The translations under genes were made by a program, and so were the position numbers. A stretch of 39,485 bases of DNA, taken from a virus (taxonomy: Duplodnaviria; Heunggongvirae; Uroviricota; Caudoviricetes). The stretch lies in the IMG/VR virus record IMGVR_UViG_2534682294_000013; one strand, written 5' to 3'. The notes below the pieces were generated by a model, which was not told where the DNA came from, ran no database searches, and saw only the letters and a list, made by a program, of their open reading frames with translations. This document shows positions 1 through 39,485 of this stretch, piece by piece; position 1 is the stretch's first letter; each line of letters begins with the position of its first letter.

Positions 1-511
1 CAATTCCATTTGGTACAATCTCAATATCTGCATTTGCTAAATAAGATTGGTAATACTTTTTCAAGTATAAACTAGGCACTATCATTTTAACATTTTGCTC
101 AAGCAATTTTGGTTCAAATGCATTATGCATATGTATAACCACTCTTGCCTGAGGAGCTCGCTTACGAATTTGAGTGTATAGCTTCATGCTATTATGAACT
201 ACAATAACACTTTCTTTCGTTATAGGAAAATCATGTGCAATATTCAATATTCTCTGTGAATATGGAAGAGGATCAAGTCTTGTCCATTTTTGAAATAACC
301 GCTTATATATGCGACTGAATCCAACCCTATGAATACTACAATTATCATTAACAAAGGTGTAATTTGAGTATCCTGGATTTTTGATACAAACAATACGATT
401 TGGAAAATTGGTACGCTGAGCAACCTGATACATCCACGTTTCAACAGCAGCCGCTCCGCGAGGAGGAATTGAAAAAATAGGAGTAACCGTAAATATTATT
501 TTATCAACCAT
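1..511 (-). CDS. LPS core glycosyltransferase, N-terminal ~170 codons only (3' end beyond window start)
   Basis: Own minus-strand translation from ATG at 509-511: MVDKIIFTVTPIFSIPPRGAAAVETWMYQVAQRTNFPNRIV..., open to position 1. Directly downstream of the second GT8 gene in the waa operon, the position of waaD in R3-type loci (synteny only). Confidence 0.5.
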   Translation of the reverse strand, partial: MVDKIIFTVTPIFSIPPRGAAAVETWMYQVAQRTNFPNRIVCIKNPGYSNYTFVNDNCSIHRVGFSRIYKRLFQKWTRLDPLPYSQRILNIAHDFPITKESVIVVHNSMKLYTQIRKRAPQARVVIHMHNAFEPKLLEQNVKMIVPSLYLKKYYQSYLANADIEIVPNGI

Positions 512-519
512 CTCGTATA

Positions 520-1533
520 TTAACCTTTCATAACATTATATTTAATTGCTGTAAAAACACCATCGAGAAATTTTTTCTGGTAAAGCAAGTGTTTATATTT
601 TTCTTTGTACTCATGTTTTTTAACAGCTTTTTTATAAGGTATATTTCTCCATGGTGATATATTATAAATATTACGAAAATAATCTGCAGAGGCGTAGTTC
701 GCCCAATCATGCCATGGCTTAGTTATACCAGTATAATGTATGAAGACAGTGTCATCATTAATAAACCGGGTGTAATATTCACTATTTTTTTCTTCAAATT
801 CTGACTTTATAGTATAAATACAATTATATTTTCTCGGTAATATTTTAGCATGATGTAGAAACATTAAGTTTAAAATATCTTGATCCGGGTACTTTAATTT
901 TTTTATAATTGACTCATCTGATAATAGATCAAAGAATTTTTCCGTTAGTCTTTGTTTTAACCATTCCCGTAAATTAATATACATTACACCAGAGTTAAAA
1001 TAGCTACCGTTAAAATCCTCATTACACAAACGCTCAGCGCTTTTACTTTGCATAGCATCTACATCAATTACCACTGCCCCATATTCATCTTTAAACTCTA
1101 ATGCTATTAACTCGTTCAATGAACCCTTACAGACGATATCAGCATCAAGATATAATAATGAATCCAATCGCGCAGAAAAATAATCAAATGAAAGCAAACG
1201 ATAATAAATAGATACTGGCCAGATATTTGATTGAGGTAGCGCCTTCAATGGCTCAGAATCAATATGATATAATTTAATTACTGTTTGATACTTCGTTGCT
1301 AATTGTGATAATAATTCAATATACTCTTTGTCTAAGTAATCAGCGATTATGTGAAAGGTAAATTTGTTTTGTTTATTATTTTCAAGAATTGAAGCAATTG
1401 AAATCGCAGCCCCAACCTGGTAGTTCTCATCAATACCCCATGAGACATTAAACGTTTCCCGTTCATCAAGTTTAACGGGGCGCTTGTCCAGTTCAATTAT
1501 ATCTTTAAATTGAGTAAGATGTTTAAAATCCAA
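520..1533 (-). CDS. waaJ: LPS outer-core glycosyltransferase, GT8 family (second GT8 of operon)
   Basis: 337-aa ORF with GT8-like sequence including DxD (YLDADIVC); located after waaY as in R3-type core loci. Symbol assigned by synteny, not verified. Confidence 0.55.
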   Translation of the reverse strand: MDFKHLTQFKDIIELDKRPVKLDERETFNVSWGIDENYQVGAAISIASILENNKQNKFTFHIIADYLDKEYIELLSQLATKYQTVIKLYHIDSEPLKALPQSNIWPVSIYYRLLSFDYFSARLDSLLYLDADIVCKGSLNELIALEFKDEYGAVVIDVDAMQSKSAERLCNEDFNGSYFNSGVMYINLREWLKQRLTEKFFDLLSDESIIKKLKYPDQDILNLMFLHHAKILPRKYNCIYTIKSEFEEKNSEYYTRFINDDTVFIHYTGITKPWHDWANYASADYFRNIYNISPWRNIPYKKAVKKHEYKEKYKHLLYQKKFLDGVFTAIKYNVMKG

Positions 1534-1557
1534 TTTAATTACCCTTCATTATAATCA

Positions 1558-2265
1558 TTATTTGCTCTTCAATCCTAGTTTGACTTTTACATCCCTGATT
1601 ACTTTTTTAATTTTCTTTTTGAATATAAGATATGTATAGCCAAAGTCTTTCAATTCATTTTTTATATTATAGTGCCGTTCAAGATCAATGCGATCTTTTG
1701 CTTTTAAAACAGCGGTTGTTTTTTTACCTGAAAGGTCAATTAGTCTTAAACCTTTTTCGGATACTATAAAATTTCCCTTATGAGGATCGCCAGACACCAT
1801 TCCATGCTGATGCAACTCTTTTATCGATTCTGATAATTGATCCTTCAGATCTTCAGAAATTTCCAAATACTCATTTAACCCGACACCTTCAATATACTCA
1901 ATGAGCATAATATAATAATGAGCGAAATTTAATGTTTTACGTTCAGCTAGCAAAAAATAGTCATTAATTGATTGGATGCCTTCACCACGTACCCGATCGG
2001 TTTGATAAATTAAATTTTCATAATAATCTTTTTTTATGCAAGATTTTAAGAAACGTTCGGTCATTTTATGCTTTGGCGCATAAACTTTAAGTACAAGAGG
2101 TCCACGAGCAGTGTCAATAAGAATGACTTTAGTATCATCAATAGAACGAAAAACTTTTAATGTTTTAACCCTGCAAGTTAAAAAGTCATTTAGAACTTGC
2201 TCATAAAAGGGATCATTATCTTTTATGAAAACTTTCACCCCATTTATCGTTTTATTATATATCAT
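1558..2265 (-). CDS. waaY: LPS core heptose kinase WaaY
   Basis: 235-aa ORF, kinase-like (HQHGMVSGDPHKGNF, IDLSGK), right size and operon position for WaaY. Confidence 0.8.
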   Translation of the reverse strand: MIYNKTINGVKVFIKDNDPFYEQVLNDFLTCRVKTLKVFRSIDDTKVILIDTARGPLVLKVYAPKHKMTERFLKSCIKKDYYENLIYQTDRVRGEGIQSINDYFLLAERKTLNFAHYYIMLIEYIEGVGLNEYLEISEDLKDQLSESIKELHQHGMVSGDPHKGNFIVSEKGLRLIDLSGKKTTAVLKAKDRIDLERHYNIKNELKDFGYTYLIFKKKIKKVIRDVKVKLGLKSK

Positions 2266-2290
2266 AATGAATTATTTTAACCTTAAATCT

Positions 2291-3298
2291 TTAGAAGCAT
2301 TTTTCTTTATAATACTTTAAATAATTAAAAATGCCTGCCATATAATGCTTTTGTTTAAATTTATGTTTTGCACAATACCGATACTGATTGCTATTTACAG
2401 GTTTAAGTAAATCTTCTTTACTCCACGGAGAAGCTGCTTTGGCGATCAAAAAACTACGTGACACCGGATAGTCAGCCCACTCATGCCAAGGTTTTGTAGG
2501 TCCCACATAGTGTATAAACACGGTGTCATCATTGACTGGATTATCAACTTTGTCTTTTAATTCATAGTTAATACTATATCGGGTATTATATTTCTCCGAA
2601 ATAAACTTCACTTTACCATTCAATAATACATTCAGTACATCTTGATCAAGGTGGGTGATTTTACTTACCCAATCTGGGTCACGCAACATTTCAATAGCTT
2701 TTGACGAAATGTTATTTAGATTCCACTCATCAATATTTATCAGTAAAAAACCAGCATTGAAATATCCAGAAGCTAACTGTGGTGTAGTTAATACCGAGGC
2801 TCGATTTTGCCACCATTCAACATCTCTTTCAGCTACAACTGCGGCAATTTCATTAGTAGAAAATTGATAATCTAAGAGTTCTTTAATACTACCCTTGCAA
2901 GCAATATCTGCATCAAGATATAGTATTTTTTCATGTTTATGATAGAAATAATCTGCAATTATAAATCGAAAATATGTTGCGTAAGTCCAGTTTTTCGTGC
3001 TTGGTAATGACTTCAGCTTATCACAATTGATAACATAAATATTAATTCTTGAATTATATTGTTTTGCTAAATCAGAAAAATATAATTTGTCTTTATCACT
3101 GATATAATCTGTGAAAACATGAAATTCACAAGAGATTTCTCTATTGTTTAATAGAATAGATGCGATGGCTACACCACATCCAAAAAGAAAATTTCTGTCA
3201 ATACCAAATGCTATATCAAGAGTATTTTTAGATCTTATATTTTGATAATGAAAATTATACTCAAAAAGGATGATGTCACTATCATTGAGTTGAGACAT
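2291..3298 (-). CDS. waaI: LPS outer-core glycosyltransferase, GT8 family (first GT8, directly after waaP)
   Basis: 335-aa ORF, paralogous to the 520-1533 product (YLDADIACKG DxD motif). The single GT8 between waaP and waaY fits R3-type waaI rather than the K-12 waaS-waaB-waaO arrangement. Symbol by synteny. Confidence 0.5.
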   Translation of the reverse strand: MSQLNDSDIILFEYNFHYQNIRSKNTLDIAFGIDRNFLFGCGVAIASILLNNREISCEFHVFTDYISDKDKLYFSDLAKQYNSRINIYVINCDKLKSLPSTKNWTYATYFRFIIADYFYHKHEKILYLDADIACKGSIKELLDYQFSTNEIAAVVAERDVEWWQNRASVLTTPQLASGYFNAGFLLINIDEWNLNNISSKAIEMLRDPDWVSKITHLDQDVLNVLLNGKVKFISEKYNTRYSINYELKDKVDNPVNDDTVFIHYVGPTKPWHEWADYPVSRSFLIAKAASPWSKEDLLKPVNSNQYRYCAKHKFKQKHYMAGIFNYLKYYKEKCF

Positions 3299-3340
3299 AT
3301 TTATTCTGTATCCAAAATTTTGGCAAAAATAAGTTACGGG

Positions 3341-4138
3341 TTACAACGATTTTCGAATCGTTCTTTCCCTGATTTTTGTGGCTTTTGCTTCTGCTTGCGA
3401 CAGCAGTCCTTGTTCCTGCTTGAGAATGTCTTTAAGCGGGGCGGCAAAATACACTTTCATAAACCGCCAGATATCCCGCTGAGTCAGGCCGATATTCATC
3501 GAAGAAAAATAAAGCCCAATAAGATCTTTATCCCGCCAACGACGTGGAACGCGCGTGCGAAGCTGCGCCCGGTGCAGGTCAATTACCGAAATTTTTAACT
3601 CCTCTTCCTTACCGGAAAAAGGCAAGTGCAGCAGGAAATGACAGATATAACAGTCACGGTGGTTAATGCCCGCAGCATGCATATCGTGCACCATCGTCGC
3701 GACACGCTTAATAAGCATACGCTTTACGCGAACATCTGGAGGGTTAGTCGCCCAGTCAGCACAGTAATCTTCAAGACTTATGGTTGGTGTCAGATCTTCG
3801 GTAATAATAAATGAAGTTCTGGTCAGCGGATTCATGCCTTTTTCGCCAAATGCCACCCCATACATAGTATCAACGCCGACATCCCGCAGTCGATGAATCG
3901 CATTCCATTCGCGGTCTGCGCCTAATACTGGCATCCGCAATGAGAGTAAATTTTTGATTATCTCTTTCAGGGTCGTGCCGCGATGCCATTTGAGAAAATA
4001 GCTTTTGCCCGCCATTTCAAATCGCAGAGTGCGGCGAGTTTCCAGTTCACGAAAAACCTCACCCTGCAAGGTTTTAACTTCCTCAAAAGGATCTTTACCG
4101 CGCCATAACGTGGCAAACGGCTCTTTAAGTTCAACCAT
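3341..4138 (-). CDS. waaP: LPS core heptose(I) kinase WaaP
   Basis: ORF track 3341-4147; start trimmed to the Met giving [14 protein letters not shown]... (265 aa), which matches WaaP as I remember it. Start at 4147 is also possible. Confidence 0.85.
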
Positions 4139-35092: not shown

Positions 35093-35187
35093 GGAAGATC
35101 GTCGTCTCCGGTGAGGCGGCTGGACTTCAAATCCAGTTGGGGCCGCCAGCGGTCCCGGGCAGGTTCGACTCCTGTGATCTTCCGCCA
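35093..35187 (+). tRNA. selC: tRNA-Sec (selenocysteine, UCA anticodon)
   Basis: GGAAGATCGTCGTCTCCGGTGAGGCGGCTGGACTTCAAATCCAGTTGGGGCCGCCAGCGGTCCCGGGCAGGTTCGACTCCTGTGATCTTCCGCCA: 95 nt with long variable arm, ACTTCAAAT anticodon loop and encoded CCA; matches E. coli selC as remembered. Confidence 0.95.
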
Positions 35188-35349: not shown

Positions 35350-36537
35350 ATGGCTCTAACCGATATACAGATCAAACGTGCAAAACCACAAGACAAACCA
35401 TACACATTGAACGATGGACAAGGTCTGTCATTGCTTATCAATCCCGATGGCTCGAAAGGCTGGCGTTTCCGTTTCCGGTTTGCAGGGAAAGCGCGGTTAA
35501 TGTCATTTGGCAGCTACGATTTAGTAAGCCTCGCAGAAGCACGTGAGAAGCGTGATATCGCCCGTAAGCAGGTTGCTAATGGCATTGACCCGGTAGAGGA
35601 ACGCAAAGCTTTAAGACTCGCTCAAAAGCTATCAACAGAAAATTCTTTCGAAGCAATATGTCGAGAATGGTATACCAACAAAGCTGATCGCTGGACTGTA
35701 GCCTATCGAGAAGAAATCATTAGGACATTCGAGCAGGATGTCTTCCCGTTCATTGGTAAACGTCCTATCAGTGAAATCAAACCATTAGAACTGCTTGAAG
35801 TATTGCGACGAATAGAGAAACGAGGAGCACTAGAGAAGACCAGAAAAGTGCGCCAAAGATGCGGTGAGGTCTTTCGTTATGCAATCATAACTGGCCGAGC
35901 TGAATACAACCCAGCACCTGATTTAGCTATCGCTCTGGCCGTTCCTAAGCCAAAACACCACCCATTTTTATCTGTCGAAGAGTTGCCTTATTTTATTCGG
36001 GATTTGGAGGCATACTCCGGCAGCATAATCACCAAAAATGCAACTAAGATAGTTATGCTTACTGGTGTAAGAACGCAGGAGATGCGCTTTGCTACGTGGG
36101 AAGAGGTTGATTTGGATAAGGAGGTTTGGGAGATACCAGCGGAACGTATGAAAATGCGTAGGCCTCACATTGTTCCTTTATCTACTCAGGTAGTTGACCT
36201 TTTTAAACAGCTCAAACCAATTACCGGTCATTACCCTTACATCTTTATTGGCAGGAACAACCGTAGCAAACCGATCTCGAAAGAAAGTGTTTCACAAGTG
36301 ATTGAGTTACTTGGTTACAAAGGCCGTGCTACAGGTCATGGATTTAGACATACAATGTCAACAATATTACATGAACAAGGGTTTGACAGTGCCTGGATTG
36401 AGATGCAATTAGCACATGTTGATAAAAATTCTATTCGTGGAACATACAATCACGCACAATATTTAGAAAATAGACGCGCAATGCTTCAGTGGTATAGTAA
36501 CTTCATATTTAATAAAATTAGTGAAGACACACTTTGA
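35350..36537 (+). CDS. int: P4-family tyrosine integrase
   Basis: 395-aa ORF MALTDIQIKRAKPQDKPYTLNDGQGLSLLINPDGSKGWRFRFRFAGK... (typical P4-integrase N-terminus) with a C-terminal catalytic region (HGFRHT ... Y); 162 nt 3' of selC. Confidence 0.85.
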   Translation: MALTDIQIKRAKPQDKPYTLNDGQGLSLLINPDGSKGWRFRFRFAGKARLMSFGSYDLVSLAEAREKRDIARKQVANGIDPVEERKALRLAQKLSTENSFEAICREWYTNKADRWTVAYREEIIRTFEQDVFPFIGKRPISEIKPLELLEVLRRIEKRGALEKTRKVRQRCGEVFRYAIITGRAEYNPAPDLAIALAVPKPKHHPFLSVEELPYFIRDLEAYSGSIITKNATKIVMLTGVRTQEMRFATWEEVDLDKEVWEIPAERMKMRRPHIVPLSTQVVDLFKQLKPITGHYPYIFIGRNNRSKPISKESVSQVIELLGYKGRATGHGFRHTMSTILHEQGFDSAWIEMQLAHVDKNSIRGTYNHAQYLENRRAMLQWYSNFIFNKISEDTL

Positions 36538-36547
36538 TTTATAAATA

Positions 36548-36575
36548 AAAAGAGCCTCTTCCGAAGCTCTTTTTT
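36548..36575. terminator. bidirectional intrinsic terminator between convergent int and the cargo operon
   Basis: aaaagagc-ctcttccgaa-gctctttt: 8-bp stem flanked by an A-run 5' and a T-run 3', so it reads as hairpin plus U-run on both strands; 10 nt after the int stop and 7 nt after the small-ORF stop. Confidence 0.45.
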
Positions 36576-36581
36576 AATTGT

Positions 36582-36755
36582 TTATTTATTGTTCTTCAAT
36601 CTTTTATCTTCTTGTAAAACAAGATTATTTAACACTTTAATTGACTTGGAGGATAAATCATCTCCTCCTAACATATTTTTTTTCCATTCCGGCCATTCAT
36701 TAATTATTTTTTTAGTTGCAACCACATGTTTAATAAAACCATTTTCGATAGACAT
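36582..36755 (-). CDS. small basic protein, 57 aa, translationally coupled to the upstream deaminase-fusion gene
   Basis: Own translation, not in the ORF track: MSIENGFIKHVVATKKIINEWPEWKKNMLGGDDLSSKSIKVLNNLVLQEDKRLKNNK. ATG at 36753-36755 is 1 nt after the upstream stop; AGGAG (plus strand ctcct, 36762-36766) sits 6 nt upstream of the ATG. 57 stop-free codons in ~30% GC DNA. Confidence 0.5.
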   Translation of the reverse strand: MSIENGFIKHVVATKKIINEWPEWKKNMLGGDDLSSKSIKVLNNLVLQEDKRLKNNK

Positions 36756-36756
36756 G

Positions 36757-38277
36757 TTAAACTCCTATGATCTTTGCGAATAAGTTAACAGAAATCTGCT
36801 CTCTTTCCAAGTAAGAAATAGGCAACAGTGATATTCTTAATGACGAATTAGACTCAGTCCATTTAACAACATTTCCCGACTTATCTTTTCTCTTAATTTT
36901 ATTACCACTTCCATTAACAATGGAAAATAGATTAAAATAGACTCGTGGACCTATTCCAATAAAAGGTTCGAAAAGCACCTTTCCTTGGTTTTTTTCATCA
37001 TTAGTTATTGATTCTGAATGAAATTCATAAGCCTTACTTTTTGGATATGGCTCTATGTAAACCACCCTCTTTATTCCCGAAGCTATAATATGCTTAGCGC
37101 AGTTGTGGCATGGGAAAGTAGTGCAATATATATAAGCATCTTGAGTACTAATATTTGTTCTAGCGCATGCTAAAATAGCTTCCATTTCAGCATGCACCAC
37201 ACGACCATATTCCGTAATATCTTGAATCAGGCTGTTATTGAGGATTCTCTCAAAATTATCACGAGATTTTCTAGGTATTTGATTGAGAATATCATGTATA
37301 ATTTCTCTTTTTTGTTTAGCATTCGAATCAAAACCTCTTACATAGTCCCTTCCTTCCGGATAGTCTTCATAAATTTCGTTCTCTGCATTAAAATATGGCC
37401 AGTATAAACCACCACCAGACTTAGGAACATCATTAGCACCAGTTGACATAATAGCGTAATTTTTTGCTAATACAGCTCCAACTTGTCTTGATAAATCAGC
37501 AGATCTCAAAGCTGAAGAAAAGGCCATATACATTGCATATTCATCAAATGTTGGCGTAATAAAAGGATTACCGAATAGCAAATCAAAAACTCTTTTTATA
37601 TCATTATTAAGTTTATCATCTCGGCCATCTTGGTTTAAAAAGAAATCAGCCAAATGAAATGTATCTCTGGTATGCTGCCCATGCCCAGACTCTTCATCTT
37701 CATCTCTAGCAATCAATAACGCTGCTTTATCTTCTGGAATTCCTTTATTACGAATTAAATTATCTAACCTGCGACTCTCATCAGAAAAAATACCAAACAA
37801 TAAAAATCCCGAGCCATATACTTCTCTTAATTTATACACCTCTTCTGGATGCTTTATTGAATTTATAACATATGCAATTCCTTTTTTATTTATTTGTAAA
37901 CGTGCATGCTTTGCCCTAATCTCATTAATTTTAGCTATTGCTCCAAGAGCCAATATATAATTACATTCACTATCCTCCCTCAGTTTATTTCCCTTAGTCA
38001 TTAAGCCATCAATTCTTTGGTAATTATCTGTATAATCTCCATTACCTAAGAGCTCAGCTATCACATCAGATGAAATCCGAACTTCAGAACATTCAAATTT
38101 ATATAAGGATAATCTATCTCTTATTTTTTTTGTAATTGCTTCTAGGTCTGTGCCAACGGAAGAAACTAACCCTATTACCATTTCTGCTAAAGGTCCTGTG
38201 GATTGCTTATCCTCCCCTGAGTTTTTTAAAAGCTGAGGTGCTTCTTTATTCAATTCTGTTATCTTTGTAATTTTCAT
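36757..38277 (-). CDS. two-domain protein: unassigned N-terminal domain fused to a cytidine/dCMP-deaminase-like zinc-binding domain; candidate anti-phage deaminase
   Basis: 506-aa ORF. C-terminal half has the CDA-fold signature: FDEYAMYMAFSSALRSADLSRQVGAVLAKNYAIMSTGAND (aa 244-283), HAEMEAI (H362, E364) and PCHNC (C390, C393). N-terminal ~230 aa has a Gly-rich segment GLVSSVGTD but no canonical Walker A. AT-rich; lies between int and cos/psu. Confidence 0.85.
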   Translation of the reverse strand: MKITKITELNKEAPQLLKNSGEDKQSTGPLAEMVIGLVSSVGTDLEAITKKIRDRLSLYKFECSEVRISSDVIAELLGNGDYTDNYQRIDGLMTKGNKLREDSECNYILALGAIAKINEIRAKHARLQINKKGIAYVINSIKHPEEVYKLREVYGSGFLLFGIFSDESRRLDNLIRNKGIPEDKAALLIARDEDEESGHGQHTRDTFHLADFFLNQDGRDDKLNNDIKRVFDLLFGNPFITPTFDEYAMYMAFSSALRSADLSRQVGAVLAKNYAIMSTGANDVPKSGGGLYWPYFNAENEIYEDYPEGRDYVRGFDSNAKQKREIIHDILNQIPRKSRDNFERILNNSLIQDITEYGRVVHAEMEAILACARTNISTQDAYIYCTTFPCHNCAKHIIASGIKRVVYIEPYPKSKAYEFHSESITNDEKNQGKVLFEPFIGIGPRVYFNLFSIVNGSGNKIKRKDKSGNVVKWTESNSSLRISLLPISYLEREQISVNLFAKIIGV

Positions 38278-38475
38278 ATGAAGTCATTCATCCAGTGAAG
38301 ATACAAAACATTTTTATAAATAATTCTTAGCATGTTTTCTATGTTTTCATTAAATTTTTTGAATTACCTCATGTTTTACATTTAAGCAACACAAGGTAAA
38401 CAACTGTTATATAAGAAAATTGAAAGCATAATGAATGATGTAGTTGGCTGTCACGTCTTCCCACTTCGTAGGGCG

Positions 38476-38490
38476 GATTCAGGCTGAATC
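38476..38490. repeat. 15-bp perfect palindrome in the cargo-operon upstream region
   Basis: gattcag-g-ctgaatc: 7-bp inverted arms around one central nucleotide, ~200 nt upstream of the deaminase-fusion start codon. Confidence 0.4.
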
Positions 38491-38734
38491 ATAGATAGTT
38501 TTAGACCTCTTATAGGACCGAATGTATAAGATGAAGGTATTAGAGGAGCTGAGCGCCTTCAAAACCGCCACTCAGTATCTAAACCGGGCAATACTTTCTC
38601 GCCCCTAACTTAGCCACTCATGGGCTCATCACGCCATCAAACATTACTGCACGATCACTAATACTCGTTCGAAACGGCACAGTACTACGGTACACCAAGT
38701 CCCGCAAAAATAAATACATTACCGCTGGCGCGCA

Positions 38735-38753
38735 GTGCTTTCCCCGCCTCGCC
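38735..38753. other. P2/P4-type cos site (19-nt cohesive-end sequence)
   Basis: gtgctttccccgcctcgcc is the exact reverse complement of GGCGAGGCGGGGAAAGCAC, the P2/P4 cohesive end as I remember it; located just 3' of psu as in P4. Confidence 0.7.
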
Positions 38754-38856
38754 CGCCCGCTTTGCGGGGCGGTTTTAATGCAGTTTCACTGACACGCTCA
38801 GGCCGCGCCGGGAATGGCGCGGTCTGCAGAAAATGAGGCAGGAAAACGCATGCAAA

Positions 38857-38917: not shown

Positions 38918-39485
38918 TTACACAGACTGATGTGATGCCAGTTGCGCACTTTTACGCGAAAAAATCATGTTCTGCGCAGGGGTGAATTTTTCACGGCTGT
39001 CATCCACCGAAGCCGCGTCAGGCCTGAATCCGATGGTCGTTAAAATGTCGCTATCCTGTGCGGAATAATTAATTTTTTCCCCCTTCGCAAGCCAGGACAG
39101 GAGGGCTTCACGCAGGGCATCTGTGGCACGCTGTATGGCACAGTTTCGGGCAATGGCCGTCAGCTCACTGTAACCCATCAGCTCCGGTGCCAGTGCGGCC
39201 GCCAGTACTGTGCCGTGCTGCTGCATAAAATCATTCAGCCGGTCGCGGATGCTGATGTGCTGAACGGCTTCATGCGAACGAATATAACGACCGGCGGCCT
39301 GATTCACCTGCCATTTTCTGACTTCGATAATATTGCGTAATTCGTCCAGGCGGCTGACGTTTCTGCCTTCTCCTGACAGAAGCCGCAGATATTCCTGTTC
39401 GGCCGCTGCCAGCTCATTTTTGCGTTGCAGCCATGCTGCTTTGTTATTCTGACAGGTGTCAAAGGCCTGCTGTAAGGCTGTGCTT
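38918..39485 (-). CDS. psu: P4 Psu-like polarity-suppression / capsid decoration protein (5' end ~5 nt beyond window)
   Basis: The frame of track ORF 38918-39307 stays open to the window edge. Own translation from the edge: STALQQAFDTCQNNKAAWLQRKNELAAAEQEYLRLLSGEGRNVSRLDELRNIIEVRKWQVNQAAGRYIRSHEAV...; resembles the P4 Psu N-terminus as remembered, and the implied length (~190 aa) fits. Confidence 0.65.
   Translation of the reverse strand, partial: STALQQAFDTCQNNKAAWLQRKNELAAAEQEYLRLLSGEGRNVSRLDELRNIIEVRKWQVNQAAGRYIRSHEAVQHISIRDRLNDFMQQHGTVLAAALAPELMGYSELTAIARNCAIQRATDALREALLSWLAKGEKINYSAQDSDILTTIGFRPDAASVDDSREKFTPAQNMIFSRKSAQLASHQSV

Follow-up and report, generated by a model that had tools for sequence, protein, structure and literature searches.

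The window analysed here is a 39,485-nucleotide (nt) stretch of DNA from a tailed-phage-type record (Caudoviricetes; IMG/VR virus record IMGVR_UViG_2534682294_000013), which over the region tested is 100% identical to Escherichia coli O157:H7 strain FRIK944. It carries a two-gene unit as cargo between the integrase and the cos/psu end of a P4-like satellite integrated at selC. Gene A (36757-38277, minus strand) encodes a 506-residue deaminase, and gene B (36582-36755, minus strand) a 57-residue mini-protein. The locus itself is no discovery, as the deaminase defence module in the P4 hotspot is already known: it is named in RefSeq and was catalogued by Rousset et al. 2022. What is new is gene B as a conserved second component of its deaminase subfamily, together with the recurrence of the gene B module on other nucleotide-pool enzymes, neither of which was found in the searchable literature and curated libraries. 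Gene B is, we conclude with good confidence, a genuine functional partner of the enzyme.

A word-based protein search with gene B returned only nine close relatives. At the loci of deaminase homologues, an open reading frame (ORF) of 53-57 residues begins 1 nt past the deaminase stop codon or overlaps it by 11-14 nt, and loci L002-L011 and L013 all have a homologous ORF at that stop. Nine fetched loci whose enzymes are 54-90% identical to that of gene A carry a gene B homologue, including loci in non-P4 settings. These span Scandinavium (enzyme identity 90%), Klebsiella-type metagenome contigs (88%), locus L006 (75%, not called as a gene), Kosakonia and Yersinia (74%), Serratia (68%), Lonsdalea (60%, adjoining mnmE and hipBA outside a satellite), Rahnella (56%, in a different element) and a Vibrio nigripulchritudo plasmid (54%, unannotated). 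The satellite loci with the deaminase cassette are L003-L008. Residues M1, W21, P22, W24 and K25 are invariant across the gene B homologues at these loci.

To extend this comparison, a hidden Markov model (HMM) of the gene B proteins was scanned against 3036 ORFs of at least 30 residues, on both strands, from 80 species-representative loci of the subfamily. Forty-eight of the 80 loci were positive (E<1e-3) with one match each, and in each case the match was the ORF that sits on the same strand at the deaminase stop codon; nothing else in any of the 80 loci reached significance. The positive genera include Pseudomonas, Photorhabdus, Vibrio, Acinetobacter, Morganella, Shewanella, Desulfobacula and Cohnella, and at higher rank the matches reach Planctomycetota, Myxococcota and Acidobacteriota (Sulfidibacter, Acanthopleuribacter). 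The gene A/B pair also occurs outside satellites, on chromosomes and plasmids of many phyla. The deaminase homologues found number at least 331. The 32 loci without gene B fall mostly into one clade, with enzymes of about 590 residues and the loop I-G-I-V-S-A-V-G-T-E-S, and the presence or absence of gene B tracks enzyme clades. The protein-coding small partner proposed in the initial annotation of the sequence is therefore real, conserved far beyond P4 satellites, and better founded than that annotation had claimed.

Selection on gene B points the same way. The ratio of nonsynonymous to synonymous substitution rates (dN/dS) is 0.11-0.46 over the first 30 codons, and differences at codon positions 1, 2 and 3 number 237, 178 and 333, with the third position richest, indicating that constraint acts on the gene B protein. 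A single genuine fusion was also found. In Methylocucumis oryzae the module is joined in frame to the C-terminus of the deaminase (...SYLEREIAAIGKLSESIDNLDITTPSDELTGLIKKLGAHVKQWPNWKKNVLGTF, followed by the stop), giving a 527-residue protein (L051 1483-3066, NZ_LAJX01000208.1) without the low-complexity tail of the free mini-proteins. Among the 120 closest deaminase homologues there was no such C-terminal fusion. Homologues of 585-610 residues were considered as candidate C-terminal fusions and rejected, as they are extended N-terminally and all share the C-terminal end motif. Many of them (L018, L022, L035, L066; P0030, P0059, P0122) have an extra N-terminal domain of about 90 residues with the pattern ...NGG.MNW..STG.I.FQG..., which occurs both with and without a downstream mini-protein. 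The mini-protein gene is present but uncalled or unannotated at L006 4520-4693 (a P4-like satellite, GCA_052220145.1) and at L013 3421-3600 (the Vibrio nigripulchritudo plasmid), so that protein databases under-represent the family.

Conservation in gene B centres on an N-terminal module of roughly 30 residues (F7, W21, P22, W24, K25; pattern F-x3-h-x6-V-x2-W-P-x-W-K), followed by a variable polar/basic tail. The protein matched no Pfam, NCBIfam or PADLOC family. All nine aligned members gave weak matches, the best at 1.5e-4, to phrog_38465, a family whose function is not known. The AlphaFold model consists of a helix (residues 3-19), a turn at W21-P22, a short helix (23-26) and a low-confidence tail; its predicted local distance difference test score (pLDDT) is moderate, at 67 overall and 71-84 over residues 1-30, and a structural search with it gave no match. 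Aligned by hhalign with the villin headpiece HP35, the module scored 61.6% probability in register, the likeness consisting of shared hydrophobic spacing and P-x-W-K. Villin headpiece (VHP) identity was not supported and is at most a tentative lead: it was not found by a PDB profile search, the gene B model is a long plus a short helix where the headpiece fold has three helices and the motif L-P-x-W-K, and Pfam VHP matched only one distant module member (0.0055). A tblastn search of 50,697 phage records for phage-encoded decoys, using a 34-residue consensus module, a query length that makes the search insensitive, gave one weak match.

The module is not confined to deaminase partners. A profile search of 1.84 billion representatives gave 377 module clusters at E<=0.001. 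Among the matches listed are 143 further proteins, 103 of them of at most 80 residues and 32 of more than 100; in the longer proteins among these matches the module lies at the N-terminus in 24, at the C-terminus in 12 and internally in four. The proteins that bear it include a NUDIX protein (P0205, 1e-10), a MazG protein (P0184, 3.4e-5), a helix-turn-helix (HTH) protein (P0166) and many without a family, which suggests that the roughly 30-residue module is portable and linked to nucleotide metabolism. On a phage-like metagenome contig (Ga0642624_27428; L098 4001-4606) the module forms the N-terminus of a NUDIX hydrolase, whose gene adjoins RNA ligase, nicotinamide mononucleotide transporter and DUF4406 genes. 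It likewise forms the N-terminus of the MazG-domain protein and of the HTH protein.

Judged by sequence, the gene A protein almost certainly belongs to the anti-phage deoxycytidine triphosphate (dCTP) deaminase family, the product name that RefSeq gives it (WP_000704989). It matches the NCBIfam equivalog NF041025, 'anti-phage dCTP deaminase', with 470.7 bits (cutoff 400), residues 32-453 aligning end to end on model positions 1-432 of 437, and the PADLOC dCTPase model with 1.2e-168 and 560.9 bits. A C-terminal zinc-dependent deoxycytidine monophosphate (dCMP)/dCTP-deaminase domain (residues ~244-453; 36919-37548, minus strand) is indicated by Pfam dCMP_cyt_deam_1 (PF00383, 5.6e-20), by PDB sequence matches to the T4, S. 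mutans and human dCMP deaminases, and by Foldseek matches of this half of the model to the T4 (1vq2) and S. mutans (2hvw) enzymes and to the PBCV-1 bifunctional dCMP/dCTP deaminase (7fh4). The initial annotation had read a zinc-binding signature here (H362-A-E364, P389-C390-x-x-C393). Those residues are present, with H362, A363, E364, P389, C390 and C393 invariant in a 16-sequence family alignment (50-90% identity), and both the deaminase fold and the assignment to a defence system are borne out by the searches just described.

The N-terminal domain (residues ~31-235; 37573-38187, minus strand) had been left unassigned. The AlphaFold model of the protein has a mean pLDDT of 76, rising to about 90 over residues 31-240, and its N-terminal half matches adenylate-kinase-like folds in Foldseek (3lw7/3h0k, template modelling score 0.71-0.73, target-normalised), the dephospho-CoA kinase 2if2 and 6pk5. 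The domain holds a non-canonical loop, G36-L-V-S-S-V-G42-T43, and this loop and a Walker-B-like strand are conserved in homologues. On the model, it corresponds to the kinase-like domain that anti-phage dCTP deaminases are expected to have and that relatives require for function. Two features previously taken as marks of a variant turned out to be family traits. The loop without a Walker lysine is typical (family consensus G-L-V-G-A-V-G-T-[DEN]-L; pattern G-L-V-[GSC]-[AS]-V-G-T), and the supposed long insertion in the deaminase domain, a stretch of about 70 residues from TGANDVP to HAEMEA, is full of residues invariant in all homologues (G289-G-L-Y-W293, G309-R-D311, D317-S-N319) and is aligned end to end by the NCBIfam model. 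The proposal of a distinct, undescribed variant thus survives in the small partner and in a separate subfamily, and falls for the P-loop and the insertion.

To place this subfamily, we recovered the two enzymes of Tal et al. (E. coli AW1.7 and U09; 'dCTPdeaminase' in DefenseFinder/PADLOC) from complete genomes via the published construct fragments. They share with the present system a kinase-like N-terminal and a zinc deaminase C-terminal domain, the RefSeq product name, a setting in defence islands or mobile elements and a presumed depletion of dCTP upon infection, but they are only 25-27% identical to the gene A protein, and over part of its length only. The AW1.7 enzyme has 576 residues rather than 506, and its loop reads G-R-T-G-S-G-C-T-T, including the G29/C30 residues mutated by Tal et al., where the gene A protein has G-L-V-S-S-V-G-T-D. 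The characterised Tal et al. system is a single gene, and a W-P-x-W-K ORF was not found anywhere in the AW1.7 and U09 loci.

A second comparison is with AvcID (DcdV/DifV, a type III toxin-antitoxin defence system of Vibrio cholerae and relatives), which has in common with the present cassette the two-domain enzyme family, a small co-transcribed partner element and the logic of an enzyme restrained until infection. The AvcID partner, however, is a non-coding RNA 5' of the enzyme, whereas the partner at the present locus is a protein whose gene lies 3' of the enzyme and is under purifying selection. Two plasmid homologues, L014 and L015, are 34-35% identical to the gene A protein and have the motifs G-A-V-G-S-G and h-h-h-D-Q with an E-to-C spacing of 27. 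The V. cholerae AvcD mutants S52K, D162A/Q163A, E384A and C411A/C414A published by Hsueh et al. (10.1101/2021.03.31.437871) imply this pattern, with Ser at the Walker-A Lys position, as read from residue numbering and not from the V. cholerae AvcD sequence. Both have an annotated small ORF directly 5' of the deaminase, in the AvcI position, and none 3'; these ORFs, of about 60 residues, lie at L014 705-887 and L015 1688-1873. The AvcD-like plasmids are a 4.6-kb E. coli/Klebsiella family (L014) and an IncI1 plasmid (L015), and the tiny ones appear to be little more than a replicon and the deaminase system. The avcID locus of enterotoxigenic E. coli H10407 was not located in the E. coli collection with gene A and the plasmid homologue as queries. 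The AvcD-type motifs are not those of the gene A protein, which has T43, I-N-S where D-Q would stand and a spacing of 26 between E and C, features common to all 77 scorable homologues among the 80 species-representatives. These distinct loops and motifs place it, on sequence criteria, in a third subfamily apart from both the Tal AW1.7/U09 type and the AvcD type.

The sole experimental record for this third subfamily appears to be a negative one, and it concerns the present locus. Rousset et al. 2022 list it as P4 hotspot system no. 35, from strain FRIK944, with WP_000704989 among the P4 hotspot loci of their Table S1; in Table S2B it is pFR98, 'Cytidine deaminase, P4, 2 genes, Escherichia coli O157:H7 FRIK944', with the 506-residue protein as Protein 1 and MSIENGFIKHVVATKKIINEWPEWKKNMLGGDDLSSKSIKVLNNLVLQEDKRLKNNK as Protein 2 (PMC9122126). 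We found no sequence difference between pFR98 and the present locus, and both proteins are identical. By its primer ends the pFR98 insert corresponds to window positions 36482-38780 and spans the leader, both genes and the terminator. The construct was synthesised and placed in MG1655 under its native promoter, and no defence was found against lambda, T4, P1, 186cIts, CLB_P2, LF82_P8, AL505_P2 or T7, a panel that the authors themselves call small (PMC9122126). It was without T3, T5, T6 and the SEC phages, on which AvcD homologues scored. Conservation of gene B was not reported in that study (PMC9122126). The initial annotation's view of the cassette as a nucleotide-deaminating anti-phage module is upheld as far as family homology goes, while the only published test of the locus speaks against it.

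Taking these observations together, we consider it on balance probable that the two genes form a nucleotide-depletion defence cassette, borne by a P4-like satellite as cargo, in which B is a regulatory subunit of A. The enzyme would convert dCTP/dCMP to deoxyuridine tri- and monophosphate (dUTP/dUMP) once infection has brought host gene expression to a halt, and the loss of deoxycytidine nucleotides would starve phage DNA synthesis. In relatives, dCTP is depleted after infection (10.1101/2021.04.26.441389), the deaminase is unleashed by phage shut-off of host transcription (10.1101/2021.04.26.441389; PMC10511110), and AvcD is toxic without its antitoxin (10.1101/2021.03.31.437871). For the gene A enzyme itself we infer substrate and trigger from homologues that are only 25-35% identical. 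Gene B would be translated by coupling from the mRNA that it shares with gene A, and through its N-terminal helix-turn it would bind the enzyme and regulate it as a dedicated subunit. That such a subunit associates with the enzyme is suggested by four features: strict adjacency, translational coupling, joint conservation across phyla and the natural fusion. Gene B may restrain the enzyme as long as the cell is uninfected, a protein playing the part that AvcI plays as an RNA antitoxin; its disordered tail might make it labile, and it could instead, or as well, be the infection-sensing element. We infer both the physical binding of A and B and the inhibitory direction of the effect. Inhibition is favoured because relatives need an inhibitor against self-intoxication and this subfamily has no recognisable 5' partner. 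Even so, an inhibitory, antitoxin-like role for gene B, or one combining inhibitor and sensor, falls somewhat short of an even chance.

The comparison with known toxin-antitoxin systems is informative in both directions. Toxin-first type II pairs and fused defence toxins resemble the present arrangement in having a coupled small protein directly 3' of a potentially toxic enzyme, a disordered tail and an occasional C-terminal fusion. As in type II pairs, gene B is adjacent, coupled and co-conserved with its enzyme, and neutralisation by binding is putative; it differs from them in having no DNA-binding domain and in that its module also occurs on unrelated proteins. A wider proposal is that the W-P-x-W-K mini-protein represents an unrecognised class of regulator, antitoxin and/or infection sensor, for defence enzymes that deplete nucleotide pools, that it replaces AvcI in a large, phylum-spanning clade of dCTP deaminases, and that its module on NUDIX, MazG and other proteins marks a general switch in phage-host conflicts over nucleotides; we put this forward only tentatively, as a speculation more likely wrong than right.

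Several observations weigh against a defence cassette controlled by a gene B regulatory subunit. The enzyme can exist without gene B, as it does in 32 of the 80 subfamily loci, and the negative pFR98 test leaves the defence activity of the third subfamily unproven. A toxin-first order is atypical for type II toxin-antitoxin pairs, though known. The stable L051 fusion speaks against a simple scheme in which a separate antitoxin is degraded, the structural model of gene B is of moderate confidence only, and the presence of the module on the termini of unrelated proteins in phage-like contexts better fits a general adaptor or sensor than an inhibitor specific to deaminases. In one rival reading gene B is an activator or phage-sensing adaptor, its W-P-x-W-K module reading a phage or host cue and switching on the attached nucleotide-pool enzyme. 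The fusions to other nucleotide hydrolases (NUDIX P0205, MazG P0184) and to unrelated domains, and the in-frame deaminase fusion, which resembles fused sensor domains, fit an activator or sensor at least as well as an inhibitor, and the failure to defend against a small panel is what would be expected if a specific trigger were needed. Set against this, 32 of the 80 enzymes manage without the module, and relatives are triggered by a general shut-off of transcription, not by a specific protein (PMC10511110). We regard an activator or sensor as unlikely, though it is the alternative we take most seriously.

A different possibility is that the locus is an AvcID-type system, with an unrecognised RNA antitoxin in the leader of the operon and gene B as an accessory or passenger. 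The cargo starts directly after the cos string, which leaves an untranslated leader of about 450 nt (38278-38726, minus strand), the presumed promoter site, before gene A. AvcI is an RNA of 171-300 nt (PMC10511110), is encoded directly 5' of avcD and co-transcribed with it (10.1101/2021.03.31.437871; PMC10511110), and is not conserved in sequence between species (10.1101/2021.03.31.437871), so the long leader at the present locus suits such an RNA and its lack of conservation is not decisive. By blastn, only the proximal ~110 nt (38280-38388) are common to the closest homologues; the middle of the leader is confined to the same 12 E. coli genomes that carry the cassette and is missing even from homologues at 88-90% identity, whose own leaders are as long (778 nt in L003/L004) but unrelated. 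The stretch 38388-38707 (minus strand, ~320 nt) has a guanine-plus-cytosine (G+C) content of about 50% and no ORF of note. The leader folds no better than shuffled sequence (z = -0.36), gave no Rfam match of note, and in a promoter scan contained one sigma-70-like site (38454-38425), fewer than in shuffled sequence and not above chance. By a crude measure, 15 of 44 gene-B-bearing loci have less than 150 nt between the longest ORF of the enzyme and the nearest upstream ORF of at least 100 residues, which suggests that a 5' RNA of AvcI size is not general in the third subfamily; no conserved 5' RNA or ORF was recognised as a 5' partner there. Given in addition that the gene A enzyme is without the AvcD-type motifs of the homologues that have 5' small ORFs, and that gene B is strictly conserved in position, an RNA antitoxin in the leader seems improbable. 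More doubtful still is a cassette that does not protect the host at all, but serves the satellite, for example by skewing deoxynucleotide pools in helper exploitation or competition, or is inert in this lineage. The published test without anti-phage activity and the rarity of the locus (12 of 5426 complete E. coli genomes) agree with it. Both ORFs are intact, however, purifying selection has preserved the catalytic residues and the partner, the pair occurs outside satellites on chromosomes and plasmids of many phyla, and the small panel lacked T3, T5 and the SEC-type phages blocked by AvcD homologues.

That dCTP deaminases defend cells by depleting nucleotides is well established; how the enzymes are silenced and then released is understood in a single subfamily, through its AvcI RNA. 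A co-located, coupled and occasionally fused mini-protein in another widespread subfamily suggests a second, protein-based solution to the problem of control, and this idea can be tested with a 57-residue gene that has four invariant residues. The negative result for the cassette could reflect the need for a specific trigger or for another phage panel. With 'dCTPdeaminase' entered as a one-gene system, defence-system finders overlook a conserved second component, which gene calling itself often misses; L006 and L013 are examples.

The anatomy of the unit agrees with what the initial annotation had described, from the ORFs and their junction to the satellite in which they lie. On the minus strand the junction reads ...ATAGGAGTTTAACATG, in which the TAA stop of gene A is followed by 1 nt and then the ATG of gene B (WP_000021256), with the Shine-Dalgarno sequence AGGAG 6 nt 5' of that ATG. 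A 12-bp hairpin (~36547-36574, minus strand) followed by a U-run closes the two-gene unit as its single terminator, 3' of gene B (36540-36574 in all). A simple terminator scan missed it, and folding confirmed a real terminator (dG -15.9 kcal/mol, z = -5.7; none of 200 shuffles was as stable). The cargo is AT-rich as proposed, with G+C of 0.29-0.35 over 36501-38500; the core genes on either side have about 0.45-0.57.

The satellite setting is equally clear. The integration site is the selenocysteine tRNA gene (tRNA-Sec, selC; 35093-35187, plus strand), identified by ARAGORN and also annotated in the identical RefSeq record. A P4-type tyrosine integrase (35350-36537, plus strand; Pfam Arm-DNA-bind_3, Phage_int_M and Phage_integrase) borders the hotspot on one side. 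The other border is the P4/P2-type cohesive-end string GGCGAGGCGGGGAAAGCAC (38735-38753, minus strand), read from the sequence, which we take to be cos. The same string terminates the conserved part of all P4 hotspot inserts in Table S2 of Rousset et al. Beyond it lies psu, for the polarity suppression protein (38918-39485, minus strand; Pfam Psu 4.5e-63 and RefSeq annotation), which continues past the window end, and in the identical FRIK944 record delta/ogr, sid-like, icd-like and alpha primase-helicase genes follow. Variable genes between the integrase and cos/psu, as found here, are the mark of P4-like hotspot cargo.

Further mobile DNA lies past the window. Directly after the satellite (L001 22053-26501; FRIK944 4858658-4863106) is a second tyrosine integrase, and behind it are an ISEc31 transposase, a truncated yeeU antitoxin, the cbtA toxin and DUF5983/DUF957 genes, which indicates that mobile elements are stacked in tandem at selC. 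In O157:H7, selC is also the insertion site of the locus of enterocyte effacement. At the opposite end of the window, a second AT-rich block (1-3500, G+C 0.27-0.35) is not an island of interest: it holds outer-core lipopolysaccharide genes (waaO, rfaY and glucosyltransferases) and is a well-known low-G+C region.

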